Shown here piece after piece: positions 4,817-18,354 of a DNA stretch of 18,354 bases. Numbering within the stretch: the stretch's first letter is position 1; each line of letters starts with the position of its first letter. Source of the DNA: Verrucomicrobiota bacterium (lineage in GTDB: Bacteria; Verrucomicrobiota; Verrucomicrobiia; Limisphaerales; CANJXF01); NCBI GenBank assembly GCA_038214755.1, contig JBBQRQ010000102.1, positions 1-18,354 of the forward strand, given 5' to 3'. Below the pieces are notes generated by a model, which was not told the origin of the DNA, did not search any database, and was given only the letters and a program-made list of their open reading frames with translations. The position numbers and the translations under genes are program-made.

Positions 4817-4927
4817 GAAATAGTGGGGCAGGCTTCCAGCCTGTCTCAGCGGGCATCTTGCCCGCGAATTCTAACCTCGCGGGCTGGAAGCCCGCGCAGG
4901 CAGACAAGATGTCTGCCCCACTATTTC
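4817..4927. repeat. REPIN-like element with four hairpins (GTGGGGCAG family)
   Basis: Perfect 15-bp terminal IR, GAAATAGTGGGGCAG (4817-4831) / CTGCCCCACTATTTC (4913-4927). Internal hairpins: CAGGC-TTCCA-GCCTG, GCGGGC-ATCTT-GCCCGC, GCGGGC-TGGAA-GCCCGC, GCAGAC-AAGAT-GTCTGC. Confidence 0.88.
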
Positions 4928-5251: not shown

Positions 5252-5359
5252 GTAGCGCAGGTTTTTAACCTGCCGTATCGCGGGTTTGAAACCCGCTGGA
5301 TGTCGCAACGTCCTGCCGGTTGCAAACCGGCGATACAGCAGCTTGCAAAGCTGCGCTAC
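5252..5359. repeat. GTAG-type REPIN-like element with four hairpins
   Basis: GTAGCGCAG ... CTGCGCTAC ends. Four 17-nt palindromes: GCAGG-TTTTTAA-CCTGC, GCGGG-TTTGAAA-CCCGC, GCCGG-TTGCAAA-CCGGC, GCAGC-TTGCAAA-GCTGC. Same layout as 11978-12129. Confidence 0.9.
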
Positions 5360-5975: not shown

Positions 5976-6045
5976 CGGAGCGCCGGTTTGCAACCGGCTT
6001 TGCGTCAACGCGCGAAAACCGAGCCGGTTGCAAACCGGCGCTCCG
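5976..6045. repeat. REP doublet (GGAG type)
   Basis: Perfect 24-bp IR, CGGAGCGCCGGTTTGCAACCGGCT (5976-5999) / AGCCGGTTGCAAACCGGCGCTCCG (6022-6045). Each arm is itself palindromic. Confidence 0.9.
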
Positions 6046-6135: not shown

Positions 6136-7683
6136 ATGAAAATATTCTTTTTTATCCTCGTATTCTTCTGCGCCCACCTCGGCAGTTTTGCCGTCAATTT
6201 TTCCAACCCCGTTTTGCCCGGCGATTTTCCCGACCCCTCCATCGTCCGCGTGGGAGAAGATTATTGGGCGACGGCGACCTCCTCGGAATGGGCACCGCTT
6301 TTTCCAATTCTTCATTCGCGCGACTTGGTCAACTGGGAACTGAAAGCAACTGTTTTTGACCAGAAGCCCGCGTGGTCCTCCAAAAATTATTGGGCGCCGG
6401 AAATTTCATTCCACAAGGGAAAATTTTACGTTTATTACGTCGGGAAAAAAATAGACGGCCCGCTCTCGATTGCGGTGGCAACCGCGGAAAATCCAACAGG
6501 TCCATGGACAGACCACGGCCCGCTCATCGGCCAAAGCGAAGGCTCGATTGACGCGGTGGCTGTAACCGACGAAAACGATGAGCGCTATTTGATTTGGAAA
6601 GCCGATGGCAACAGTCGGGGCAAGCCGACCGTTATTTACGCGCAAAAACTTTTGGAAGACGGGACGAAGCTCGTGGGGGAAATGAAGGAGATTCTGCGCA
6701 ACGATACGCCGTGGGAAGGCAGCATCATCGAAGGGCCGTTCGTGCAGAAACGCGGTGATTGGTTTTATATTTTTTATGCGGGCGGCAATGGCTGTTGCGG
6801 CAAGCAATGCAATTATGGGACGGGGGTGGCGCGTTCGAGAAAGTTGCTCGGCCCGTTTGAAAAATATTCAGGCAACCCGATCCTCGCGAGCAACGAGACC
6901 TGGAAATGTCCCGGTCACGGCAGCATCGTGACGACGGCAGACGGGCGCGATTTTTTTCTCTGCCACGCCTACGACGCGAAGAGAATGAATTACGTCGGAC
7001 GCGAAGGCGTGTTGAATGAAATCAAATGGAACAAGGAGGGCTGGCCGATCATCAACGAAGACAAAGGTGTCAGGAGCCAGGGCGTCTCGCCACACGGGAA
7101 AGTCCAACGAACCGATTTGGAATTCGTGGATGATTTCGCCACGACCAATTTAAATTTGCGCTGGCAATGGCCTCATTCGCTTGAGCCGCATTTCAAAATT
7201 GAAAAAGGGGAATTGATTCTGACCGCGCCAGCCGATGCGCGAAACAATCTTTTCGGCTCCGTGATGGCAGTGCAGACCACCACGGGAAATTACGCCGCGA
7301 CTGCATTGGTGGACGTTCGCGAAATGCCGAGCGGCTCGCGCGCGGGACTTTTTGCTTTTGGGGATTTGGACAACGCGCTCGGCGTGACGCTCGGAGATGG
7401 AAAGGTCACGTTGCATCGCCGACAGAAAAATAAAACAGAAACGTTGGGCGCGATTGATTCTCCGGCATTATCAGAAATTTATCTGCGGATGGAAGCGAAG
7501 GAAGGTCACCGTTTCCAATTTTCAGTCTGGTCAGGAACCAACTGGAAAAGCGTGGGAGAAAATTTGGATCTCGAAGGAGATTACCTGCCGCCGTGGGACC
7601 GGGGAGTGCGCATCGCGCTAACCGTCGGCGGAGTGGGCGACGCCACGGCAAAATTTGATTGGCTGCGCGTCGTGCCCAAGTGA
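6136..7683 (+). CDS. Secreted glycoside hydrolase family 43 (beta-xylosidase/arabinofuranosidase-like) with C-terminal beta-sandwich
   Basis: Signal peptide from ATG 6136; NPVLPGDFPDPS, WAPE, SIDA, IEGP and GHGS motifs carry the GH43 Asp/Asp/Glu triad. The ORF extension to 5611 overlaps the TPMT gene and is spurious. Confidence 0.93.
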   Translation: MKIFFFILVFFCAHLGSFAVNFSNPVLPGDFPDPSIVRVGEDYWATATSSEWAPLFPILHSRDLVNWELKATVFDQKPAWSSKNYWAPEISFHKGKFYVYYVGKKIDGPLSIAVATAENPTGPWTDHGPLIGQSEGSIDAVAVTDENDERYLIWKADGNSRGKPTVIYAQKLLEDGTKLVGEMKEILRNDTPWEGSIIEGPFVQKRGDWFYIFYAGGNGCCGKQCNYGTGVARSRKLLGPFEKYSGNPILASNETWKCPGHGSIVTTADGRDFFLCHAYDAKRMNYVGREGVLNEIKWNKEGWPIINEDKGVRSQGVSPHGKVQRTDLEFVDDFATTNLNLRWQWPHSLEPHFKIEKGELILTAPADARNNLFGSVMAVQTTTGNYAATALVDVREMPSGSRAGLFAFGDLDNALGVTLGDGKVTLHRRQKNKTETLGAIDSPALSEIYLRMEAKEGHRFQFSVWSGTNWKSVGENLDLEGDYLPPWDRGVRIALTVGGVGDATAKFDWLRVVPK

Positions 7684-7685
7684 AC

Positions 7686-7780
7686 GTGCTGCCGACATCC
7701 TGTCGGCAGAAGAGAGCCGATTAGTGTGGCGCATTCTCGAAGTCGCGACCTCTACTCTGCCGACAGAATGTCGGCAGCAC
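7686..7780. repeat. REP doublet between convergent genes
   Basis: GTGCTGCCGACATCCTGTCGGCAGA (7686-7710) and TCTGCCGACAGAATGTCGGCAGCAC (7756-7780) form a 25-bp IR with one mismatch, in the loop. Confidence 0.9.
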
Positions 7781-8936
7781 ATTTTTTCCGCCAAAGCCGC
7801 GCCAGAATGGTTCCGACGACCAGCGCAATGAGATAACCGTAGGGCAGGGCACTCGCCATCAGCCCGACCAGCAGCGCGAGAAAAAAATCCCGCTTGGAGT
7901 CGGTCATGTCGCGAATCAAAAGCATCAAAGCCAGGCCTTCGAACAAAAGAATCACTCCGAGAATCGGCATCGGAAAAACTTGAATCACATTTTGAAATCC
8001 GCTGCTGAAGAAGAGTCCAATGGTCAGATAGAGCGCTCCGTAAATGATGACCGAGCCTCCCGTGCGCGCGCCAAATGCGTAATGCCCAGCCAGGCCGCCA
8101 GAGCCGTGGCACGTAGGAATTCCTCCGAAAAATGGATTGATTAGATTCATCAGCGAATAGGTGAAGCTGATTTTTTTCAGCGAAGGCGCGCGATCAGAAA
8201 ATAAATCCTGAGCGGTCTGGCGCGCGGCGAGAATGGAATTGCCGATGGATAACGGCACTTGCGGCAACGCCAGCAACAAAAATCCCGCCCAAATATTTTG
8301 CCAGGCCAGTGGGCGAATTTTTGGAACTTTGAAGCCGATTTGCTGCGTGACGGAATACAAATCCAGCTTCACTCGCACCAATGAATAAATCGCCCCCAAA
8401 ATCAAAACGAAAATTGCGCTGGGATATTTTCGATTTTGGTAAAGCAACAAGCTGATGACGAACGCAATCGCCGCCAGCCAATATCCTCCGACGCCTTCGC
8501 GCTGGACATAATCTTTCAGCGCCAAACCGGCGAGTTGCAGACCCAAGCCGAATTGAATTCCGCGCACCACAACTTTTGGGATGACGCGACCCAGCCAATC
8601 GACCAGCCCGGTGACAGTCAGCAACAACATCGTCAGACCAATGGCGAAACCGCCGCCGTAAAGAATTTCGGGCGTGATTTGTTTCGCGGCGCTCTGCGCG
8701 ATGACCATCACCGCGACCGCCTTGAGCGGTTGGACCGCCATGGGCAAACGATAAAAAAATCCGGTGAAAACCTGCATCGCGCCGTAAATAATCAAGACGC
8801 TCACGCTGTCCAAACCGGCGGCGAGAATCATCCCAACGACCAGCGGCAGATCGGTGCCGATGTCGCCAAATGCTCCGGCCAGTTCGTTGCGATCAAAGCG
8901 AATCGGCATTGGCGAAATTTTTTCCGGTAGTTCCAT
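7752..8936 (-). CDS. Putative molybdate/sulfate transporter (MOT1-like family)
   Basis: NELAGAFGDIGT, PMAVQPLK, PQVPLSIGNS and PTCHGSGGLAGHYAFGARTGG motifs, plus many TM helices. Confidence 0.9.
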   Translation of the reverse strand: MELPEKISPMPIRFDRNELAGAFGDIGTDLPLVVGMILAAGLDSVSVLIIYGAMQVFTGFFYRLPMAVQPLKAVAVMVIAQSAAKQITPEILYGGGFAIGLTMLLLTVTGLVDWLGRVIPKVVVRGIQFGLGLQLAGLALKDYVQREGVGGYWLAAIAFVISLLLYQNRKYPSAIFVLILGAIYSLVRVKLDLYSVTQQIGFKVPKIRPLAWQNIWAGFLLLALPQVPLSIGNSILAARQTAQDLFSDRAPSLKKISFTYSLMNLINPFFGGIPTCHGSGGLAGHYAFGARTGGSVIIYGALYLTIGLFFSSGFQNVIQVFPMPILGVILLFEGLALMLLIRDMTDSKRDFFLALLVGLMASALPYGYLIALVVGTILARLWRKKCAADILSAE

Positions 8937-9033: not shown

Positions 9034-9131
9034 GGAGCGCGGACAAGCCTTGTCCGCGTATTTCTAAATAGACAAAACCCAAGGCGTTTTTCACTACTTC
9101 GGATTCGCGCGGACAAAGTTTGTCCGCGCTC
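9034..9131. repeat. REP doublet (GGAGCGCGGACA family) in a divergent intergenic region
   Basis: GAGCGCGGACAAGCCTTGTCCGCG (9035-9058) / CGCGGACAAAGTTTGTCCGCGCTC (9108-9131); differences lie only at the palindrome centre. Confidence 0.87.
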
Positions 9132-11977: not shown

Positions 11978-12129
11978 GTAGCGCAGGATTGCATCCTGCC
12001 GTATCGCAGGTTTTCAACCTGCGAAATGCCGTCGGGAACGGGAGACTTTCGTGAACCAAAGACTTTCTCTCTTTGCGACGTTCAGCCGGTTTCAAACCGG
12101 CGCTACAGCAGGATGCAATCCTGCGCTAC
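11978..12129. repeat. GTAG-type REPIN-like element with four hairpins (same family as 5252-5359)
   Basis: Perfect 22-bp terminal IR, GTAGCGCAGGATTGCATCCTGC (11978-11999) / GCAGGATGCAATCCTGCGCTAC (12108-12129). Inner palindromes GCAGG-TTTTCAA-CCTGC and GCCGG-TTTCAAA-CCGGC. Confidence 0.92.
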
Positions 12130-15943: not shown

Positions 15944-16069
15944 ATTTTTTTTGGGTTTGTTGTTGGCGTTGAGCATTAGCGAGGTTGGAAAACGAAAGCA
16001 ACGGGAAATCCGGGCAAGGTTAGATAAAGGGTGTGATCAAAAGCGGTTGAGGCGGGATTTTGGTTTCCT

Positions 16070-16192
16070 TGGACTGCGGCGGCATGACGCCGCTTTTCCT
16101 GCGCGTGACGCCATGGAGGAAGCGCTCAACCTGAAGAACCTTTCCGGCTTTTCCACCGTGCAGCCAAAGCGGGGACGTGTCCCCGCAGTCCA
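16070..16192. repeat. REP doublet (TGGACTGCGG...CCGCTTT family)
   Basis: TGGACTGCGGCGGCATGACGCCGCTTT (16070-16096) / AAAGCGGGGACGTGTCCCCGCAGTCCA (16166-16192). The flanks are complementary and each arm folds on its own with a different inner stem. Confidence 0.85.
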
Positions 16193-16298
16193 GATACGAT
16201 CAGTTCCAACCTCCCCCCTTTTTAATCACACCCTTGGATATCGAGATAATACTTTCGCTTTCGGCCTCGCAAACAGGTAATGATGTTCAAACTTTTTC

Positions 16299-17659: not shown

Positions 17660-17914
17660 GTAGCCGCCGACGTGAGGAGGCGGATTTCAAAGTTCGCTGG
17701 TAGCTGCCGAAGTGAGGAGAACCGCAGCCACGGAAAGTTGGGGCATCGGCACCATGAACCGGGCCAGCGTTGGTAGGGCGCGTCACTCCGTGCGCGCCGT
17801 GGGCGACGCCAAGCCAAATGCGGCGCGCCCGGGGTGACGCGCCCTACCTTGAGGTTCATGGATAGGCGGATTTCAACGAGCCTATTCAGTCCGCTTCCCC
17901 AAGTCAGCGGTTCC
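17660..17914. repeat. Composite REP cluster (GTAGCCGCCGACGTGAGGAGGCGGA family): one intact copy, one interrupted copy and one degenerate inverted copy
   Basis: Copy 1 at 17660-17690. Copy 2 is split into 17700-17719 and 17864-17876. The inverted copy at 17890-17914 matches the reverse complement at 19/25. Confidence 0.8.
17772..17848. repeat. GTAG-type REP doublet nested in a 144-bp insert
   Basis: GGTAGGGCGCGTCACTCCGTGCGCGCCG (17772-17799) / CGGCGCGCCCGGGGTGACGCGCCCTACC (17821-17848), 26/28 complementary. Flanked by CCATGAACC (17752-17760) / GGTTCATGG (17853-17861). Confidence 0.9.
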
Positions 17915-17968: not shown

Positions 17969-18354
17969 ATGGCCATTTTCTACGACACCCACGCGCACCT
18001 GGATTATCCGGATTTCGAGACCGACTTTCCGCAATTGATCGAACGCGCCCACGCCGCCGGGATCACGAAAATGATTTCTATCGGCACCGATTTGGAAAGC
18101 AGCGCGCGGGCAATTGCGCTGGCGGAAAAATACGATTCGATTTACGCCGTCGTCGGCTGGCATCCGACGAATGCGCTCGAAGCACCAGAGGAATTATTTG
18201 AGCCGCTGCGAAAATTGGCCGCGCATCCGAAAGTCGTTGCGATTGGCGAAACTGGTTTGGATTATCATCATCTTCCAAGTGAGAGCGGCGCGCACGGAGT
18301 GACGCGCCCTACCTCAGCAGGCGTGGTAGGGCGCGTCACTCCGTGCGCGCCGTC
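17969..18354 (+). CDS. tatD: TatD-family hydrolase/DNase, 5' part (open to the window end)
   Basis: Manual translation from ATG 17969 gives MAIFYDTHAHLDYPDF...ISIGTD...AVVGWHP...VVAIGETGLDYHHLPS..., with no stop before 18354. The ORF track omits it, presumably because it has no stop codon here. Confidence 0.93.
   Translation, partial: MAIFYDTHAHLDYPDFETDFPQLIERAHAAGITKMISIGTDLESSARAIALAEKYDSIYAVVGWHPTNALEAPEELFEPLRKLAAHPKVVAIGETGLDYHHLPSESGAHGVTRPTSAGVVGRVTPCAP
18286..18352. repeat. Perfect REP doublet inside the tatD reading frame
   Basis: CGGCGCGCACGGAGTGACGCGCCCTACC (18286-18313) / GGTAGGGCGCGTCACTCCGTGCGCGCCG (18325-18352), 28/28, with an 11-nt spacer. Positions 18324-18353 are identical to 17771-17800. 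Confidence 0.93.

Follow-up and report, generated by a model that had tools for sequence, protein, structure and literature searches.

Results

A GTAG REP arm is split by a 144-bp unit

The window, that is the whole stretch of 18,354 nucleotides analysed here, is contig C102 of a 5.1-Mb genome in 175 contigs (labelled G000). In an intergenic region, with a 443-aa open reading frame without NCBIfam match on one side and a tatD-family gene on the other, lie two arms of a GTAG REP family that we term family A, the second of which is interrupted by 144 bp. The features are as follows:

17660..17690, + strand: intact GTAG REP arm of family A that displays the unbroken target; a paralogous copy standing alone, 40 bp upstream of the split one (from the sequence)
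17700..17717, + strand: left half of the split family-A REP arm, the left side of the target (from the sequence)
17718..17719, + strand: left copy of the AG core (from the sequence); the same AG flanks autonomous IS110s
17720..17863, + strand: 144-bp non-autonomous IS110-derived element (mini-1)
17720..17751, + strand: leader of 32 nt that represents the parent IS110's outer left end (from its likeness to the left end on G330:C603)
17752..17760, + strand: left subterminal inverted repeat CCATGAACC; autonomous sister elements have it too, ~30 nt in from their left end
17772..17848, no strand assigned: cargo, a family-B GTAG REP doublet with 28-bp arms at 17772-17799 and 17821-17848
17853..17863, + strand: right subterminal repeat GGTTCATGG (17853-17861) plus AT, the right end of the parent IS110
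17864..17865, + strand: right copy of the AG core (from the sequence)
17866..17876, + strand: right half of the split REP arm, identical to 17680-17690; with the core it reads AG-GCGGATTTCAA (17864-17876)
17891..17914, - strand: decayed partner arm of the host family-A doublet (18/24 matches to the arm, read from the sequence)

These coordinates agree base for base with those of an earlier note on this DNA, which had described the intact and split arms, the insert with its leader, 9-bp inverted repeat and GTAG doublet, and the AG on both sides. The last bases of the left half together with the core read TGAGGAG, the sequence predicted for the left target guide in autonomous relatives that occupy this site. 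With a folding energy of -51 kcal/mol (z -5.7), the insert is more stable than each of 200 shuffles.

The uninterrupted target at 17660 had been taken to show the empty site; it does display the unbroken sequence, but as a neighbouring paralogous arm and not as an empty allele of the locus. An orthologous empty allele was not found among eight same-genus genomes, in five of which tatD is present but the DNA upstream of it differs and has no REP. The filled locus is covered with zero differences by contigs of the probable source sequencing run, a match that is not independent support, and an excision or circle joint was not seen in these contigs, a neutral result as contigs drop rare forms.

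Other REP-like doublets are present in the window. At least six further families lie between genes (4817-4927, 5252-5359, 5976-6045, 7683-7783, 9035-9131, 11978-12129 and 16027-16235, the latter with a doublet nested at 16070-16192), and at the contig end a family-B REP doublet sits in frame within tatD (18286-18352). At this spot of tatD, genome G005 has a similar in-frame insert, G002 a worn one and G003 a different one, while G001 and G004 have none.

Mini-1 opens family-A REPs at one AG throughout the genome

We found at least 21 two-ended copies of mini-1 in the genome, nearly all of which open family-A GTAG REPs at the same AG, and copies with shared boundaries and core, for which the earlier note had proposed to search, therefore exist. 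The tally, combined by hand, comprises 21 copies with both ends, 4 with the right end only and 1 left-end remnant of a sister type. AGGCGGATTTCAA, which might have been a common independent fragment, is not one, with 4 occurrences in the 5.1-Mb genome. The copies measured (n = 19) are 112 to 166 bp long and have in common a leader of ~30 nt (shorter in a few), the subterminal repeat and a right end near CRTGGAT before AG; several are eroded at their ends. Cargo from at least five REP-doublet families bears out the expectation of variable cargo between the 9-bp repeats, with the refinement that the inner letters of the repeat vary between subfamilies, both sides changing together (CCATGAACC, CCACGACGC, CCATGTCAC, CCATGTCGT).

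Across the genome, 230 of 303 family-A halves run on unbroken, and among the remaining 73 many are variant forms of the repeat sequence. Among 142 family-A doublets, 26 span at least 150 bp; inspection by eye shows a broken arm in 19 of these 26, with the break at this AG in 16. A looser tally of break positions proved too permissive and was replaced by this stricter one; the mini counts that it gave near families C-F were within chance.

Next, we compared inserts with the host spacers around them. For 23 pairs among the 19 copies, inserts are 81-97% alike whereas host spacers are 27-67% alike, save for one pair with spacers at 81%. Such similarity of inserts within unlike spacers favours separate and repeated insertions of what would be a mobile unit into pre-existing family-A doublets. 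The same distribution bears on an alternative in which a few IS110-derived insertions were followed by copying of host doublet and mini together, as one REPIN, by RAYT. Consistent with such copying, the host doublets are GTAG REPs, the genome has Y1-domain matches (17, see below), one pair of similar inserts does have similar spacers, and a second miniature, mini-2, carries whole family-A doublets. However, the spacers are at most 67% alike in 22 of the 23 pairs of similar inserts, and a single spacer subfamily holds different minis in opposite arms (C11 and C49 versus C17 and C37), and we consider REPIN copying improbable compared with repeated insertion.

A junction of the right end with the left end of mini-1 was not found in G000, where 10 pattern matches included none that was convincing. 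A scan of a genome collection gave 96 matches, 18 of them in a family-A context and most of the others looking like chance. Relatives with the same feature, where named, are mostly Verrucomicrobiota, with Limisphaerales among them.

The ends of mini-1 are those of autonomous IS110 elements in related genomes

Of 401 genomes of the order, 24 contained a 15-nt left-junction pattern, whereas the reversed control gave a single match. In genome G339 this pattern opens two identical 1622-bp elements that encode a 439-aa IS110 transposase, use the same AG and have the same end layout as mini-1. A metagenome scan returned 80 relatives; for the closest 36 of the 80 (69-89% identity) the left flank is readable in 30, and all 30 start, by eye, after a REP-like half ending in AG. 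A sister group at ~50% identity has the same or a nearly identical 9-bp repeat pair. In G000 itself, a G339-type left end lies in a family-A arm at C22:42820-43127 and is followed by REP doublets with no right end; this locus is a remnant of a sister element.

The exact right end of mini-1 is present in 13 of the 401 genomes, and positions 17851-17863 are identical (13/13) to the last 13 nt of a transposase-bearing element in G330 and G013. The right end was found on transposases on two contigs of each genome, in each case followed by the rest of a family-A-type doublet. There, the right-end bases encode the C-terminal E-V-H-G of the transposase, and the stop codon overlaps the AG core. Full-length homologues exist, and 6 of the 7 fetched end in EVHG. 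For the left end, the leader and repeat of mini-1 are identical at 34 of 42 nt to a left end on G330:C603. The DNA beyond that left end matches a profile of autonomous leaders (E 1.5e-6 among 3 test sequences), which two cargo sequences do not match; it is by this profile match only, across a contig break, that the left end is linked to the transposase. A complete exact partner on one contig was not found in 120 relatives of G330, 301 genomes of the class, 5 further genomes and viral contigs. In G330:C527 (L318), the partner transposase gene is broken at ~2207-2320 by a ~110-bp palindrome.

These matches also bear on whether there was an insertion at all. The locus could be thought of as a tandem pair of decayed family-A doublets separated by another REP, the right end being a worn family-A arm: it lies in register with the arm, both reading C-R-T-G before AG, and at one locus of another genome (L115/L142) an intact arm takes its place. 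Against this, a family of transposases has this right end as its last codons, and the leader resembles an IS left end and not a REP spacer. By these comparisons the reading without insertion appears largely refuted, and we give it next to no credence.

The proteins of the partner elements, including that of G339, score 205-206 bits against the NCBIfam IS110 model NF033542 (cut-off 140). In a tree of 22 proteins, midpoint-rooted and with the IS110 resident in G000 left out, the EVHG, G339 and CCATGAACC groups fall in one clade with support 100/100. Protein P0003 has the motif residues D14, E57, D94, D97 and S336 (DEDD RuvC-like domain and C-terminal serine domain), whose roles we take to be those of their counterparts in IS621. 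P0003 matches IS621 (PDB 8WT6) at E 1.6e-7. In the partner clade the core is AG, a 9-bp subterminal repeat lies ~31 nt in from the left end, and the long non-coding end, ~200-260 nt, is the left one. We rejected an assignment to the IS1111 group: repeats of at least 9 bp are present, but the long non-coding end is on the left and not on the right.

Collectively, autonomous IS110s with matching ends at the same AG uphold the view in the earlier note that the insert is a small non-autonomous unit targeting REPs. Its preference for IS110-type recombination over a classical MITE, which was based on the 2-nt core and asymmetric ends, also held, as the ends match those of IS110s and the repeats lie 32 and 2 nt inside. 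A MITE mobilised by a DDE transposase would have 9-bp terminal inverted repeats and a 2-bp target duplication, and a 9-bp inverted repeat and a 2-bp direct repeat are indeed found at the borders. With 32 nt and 2 nt between them and the ends, however, the repeats are subterminal, and the enzymes encoded by autonomous elements of this end type are DEDD recombinases. A DDE MITE appears already refuted by the partner elements and has a negligible probability.

The resident IS110 and the Y1 loci examined do not have the ends of mini-1

The partner transposase was not found in the 175 contigs of G000, nor was any part of its leader RNA region. Multi-copy IS are often missing from fragmented assemblies because their copies collapse. 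In a genome of 175 contigs, the absence of the partner accordingly lowers the case for present activity and not that for ancestry. Given this absence and the erosion of many copies, the mini-1 family is probably inactive here and its copies are probably decaying.

The one IS110 assembled in G000 (L001, C98:1-1270) is apparently intact, multi-copy and IS621-like, has a CT core and sits in the CCCTCTCC repeat family. Further ends of it, at least five right and three left, lie at contig borders (contig ends C8, C14, C30, C33, C81 and C109). As a partner of mini-1 it was rejected, having a CT core, other ends and the CCCTCTCC family as target; its leader matches its own target and donor and not those of mini-1. 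The likeness to IS621 proposed in the earlier note fits less closely than the rest of its reading: the IS621-like element of this genome has other ends, target and guides, and the clade is closer to ISPpu9 and MITEPpu9.

We also examined the 17 loci with Y1-domain matches. The ends of mini-1 were not found beside the 14 whose flanks were examined, where other repeats occur; the three within long open reading frames were left out. Of the two kinds of locus on which the ends might have been expected, IS110 and RAYT, it is thus the IS110s of related genomes that have them. Three Y1/RAYT-like domains lie in frame within 970-1440-aa open reading frames (C33, C64 and C88; L010, L014 and L015), two of which look helicase-like by eye.

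A RAYT (HUH Y1 nuclease) might nevertheless have moved the unit as single-stranded DNA, since C|T cuts at both ends and at the target would also leave a CT, AG on this strand, on each side. In passages of one study, TnpA-REP of E. coli is reported to require C|T for cleavage and single-stranded circles are proposed (PMC3333891), and the insert is a strong hairpin whose cargo is a GTAG doublet. The flanks of the 14 Y1 loci, which lack these ends, speak against such a route, as do the ends of the unit, which belong to IS110 elements, and the composition of the copies, some of which have no cargo while the others have cargo families that differ between constant ends. Transfer by a RAYT is in our view very unlikely, and movement by an IS110 recombinase is the reading that we follow below.

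Leader segments of autonomous elements track target and right end

Of 91 autonomous leaders that were aligned, 6 were dropped as not being true left ends and 85 were kept. In these, a 7-nt leader segment tracks the target of the element (68/85) and its right end (40/42). For the target, the 5 bases before AG equal those at one fixed leader position in the 68 elements; over 40 distinct pairs the mean match was 4.05 of 5 bases, compared with a shuffle mean of 1.97 and a maximum of 2.67 in 10,000. At a second leader position, the bases are those of the element's own right end in 40 of 42, although these are 6 distinct pairs only and 21 of 10,000 shuffles reach that value. Both tests are inflated by the relatedness of the elements; the segment nevertheless follows targets that are highly diverse.

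The behaviour of these segments would fit that of bridge-RNA guides in the IS621 scheme. Right-hand guides were not located in the leaders of the clade, and a footprint of the form 7+2+2, in which the bases to the right of the core would be fixed, was rejected: across the clade these bases vary, and none of the leader columns tracks them clearly. The guides of the exact partner, TGAGGAG for the target and TGGATAG for the donor, are a prediction, its own guide region not having been recovered. The predicted guide pattern was found in 0 of 276 genomes, where the partner is rare and fragmented, so that this result says little.

Miniatures carry REP doublets and are nested

REP doublets do land inside IS110 elements of these families. 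Family B, the cargo in the window, occurs at ~40 loci of the genome, and a mini end lies alongside at 10 of these, which hints that minis account for a real share of REP spread. Mini-2, of which there are ~15 copies, has the same repeat as mini-1 and a different leader, and its cargo is mostly family-A doublets, some of which already hold mini-1. Wherever its flank can be recognised, mini-2 sits in the CCCTCTCC repeat family, and its leader matches autonomous IS110s at three other genomes or loci (35/38, 34/41 and 35/41 nt). At C49:3460-3760 of G000 there are five layers: a CCCTCTCC repeat holds mini-2, which holds a family-A doublet, which holds mini-1, which holds a family-C doublet. Two kinds of IS110 miniature are also nested at C37:31340-31600, where the outermost repeat is unrecognisable. 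In G330, a mini with nearly the leader of G330:C603 has a family-A doublet as cargo.

Minis without cargo, 67-71 bp long, were found in G212. In G211, a 587-bp element (L168, C96:535-1121) has G339-type ends around a very AT-rich filling without transposase similarity, and G127 has abutted right-end/AG/left-end junctions. Sister IS110s at eight loci (L226, L245, L251, L257, L258, L269, L270 and L301) have a target that resembles the right end of their own kind, and so land in or beside chains of miniatures.

Discussion

Taken together, our results make it very probable that mini-1 is a gene-less miniature with both ends of an AG-core IS110 around a REP doublet, likely moved in trans by the recombinase of that IS110 and a predicted bridge RNA. 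What we observed is that its ends are shared with autonomous elements, that it occupies one fixed AG, that its many copies lie in unlike host repeats and that relatives have guide-like segments. The unit of 144 bp has no transposase of its own, its copies are dispersed, and its site and 2-nt core are those of the autonomous element, the AG of family-A REPs. Movement in trans is what we infer from these sequence comparisons.

We propose the following course. The IS110 recombinase would join the two ends of mini-1 at AG, and the unit would be excised as a small circle. A bridge RNA with the guides TGAGGAG and TGGATAG would set the insertion site, and integration in trans into a family-A REP would leave one AG on each side. 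The cargo doublets would have entered empty or internally deleted elements, probably via their own RAYT enzymes, and then hitch-hiked. The partner IS may since have been lost from this genome, or was not assembled, and the copies are probably decaying. The cargo-less minis, the 587-bp element and the end junctions of G127 give indirect support to circle excision and RNA-guided integration.

The principle of a passenger element that uses IS110 ends in REPs is already published. ISPpu9 of Pseudomonas putida KT2440, an IS110-group element, is described as inserting at AG in REPs with one AG per end, and MITEPpu9 as lacking the transposase, keeping two ends and forming circles, with movement in trans proposed (passages of PMC12288879). 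Mini-1 shares the AG in REPs, the one AG per end and the transposase-less module with two ends (PMC12288879). Its layout is also similar: in our own reading of Table S2 of that paper, ~35 nt of the left box precede a short motif, and the complement of this motif is found just within the right end (PMC12288879). Mini-1 is thus a non-autonomous IS110 derivative like MITEPpu9, but smaller and with REP cargo, a likeness judged by site, ends and layout. According to the same passages, MITEPpu9 has a small-RNA gene and lies beside its transposase (PMC12288879), whereas mini-1 has REP doublets and no partner in the assembly. Mini-1 further differs in its 112-166 bp (67-71 bp when empty, in other genomes), in its several REP families, in up to five nested layers and in the end sequences.

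With the bridge recombinases of IS621 and the IS110 family, as described in passages of PMC11208160, the partner clade shares the DEDD plus serine recombinase, a long left non-coding end, a short right end, a REP target and a 2-nt core, as well as, in sister elements, leader segments that match the left side of target and donor. The core is nevertheless AG in the partner clade and CT in IS621, in gene orientation, and the 7 matching nucleotides are on the left side only, with no right-hand guides located. Subterminal repeats are given as 2-3 bp in the IS110 group and 7-17 bp in IS1111 (PMC11208160); the partner clade departs from the IS110 group in having a repeat of at least 9 bp, ~31 nt inside the left end.

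REPINs and GTAG REP dimers resemble the system described here in that host and cargo of mini-1 are GTAG-tagged or related doublets. Di Nocera et al. described REP dimers within recurring palindromic wrappers in a few species; the passages concerned do not link the wrappers to an IS, and IS110 occurs 0 times in the main text (PMC3733652). In contrast to those wrappers, the wrapper here is an asymmetric pair of IS110 ends. Among the open-access papers searched, none dealt with IS110 miniatures that carry REPs, nor with this clade from Verrucomicrobiota. That very small IS110 passengers carry REP doublets and are nested in cascades is well supported.

A wider reading, which we put forward as a tentative possibility, is that in Limisphaerales IS110 miniatures are a second, RAYT-independent vehicle for REP doublets, and a cascading one: mini-2 would deliver family A, the target of mini-1, and mini-1 would deliver further REP families, in G330 its own target. 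The hairpin formed by subterminal repeats and palindromic cargo may enable these 70-170-bp units to bring their ends into contact, which would explain why the inner letters of the repeat change on both sides at once.

With these results, a common wrapper around REP doublets acquires a concrete origin in these bacteria. They also suggest that bridge recombinases are responsible for part of the spread of REPs, for which RAYT enzymes are usually given the credit. For the AG-core IS110 clade, the minis define a natural minimal donor that consists of ~41 nt at the left end and 11 nt at the right, and the 85 elements with matched target and guide constitute a natural specificity table that is directly testable. 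The finding would have greater weight if the hairpin is needed for movement, or if minis account for a real share of REP spread.
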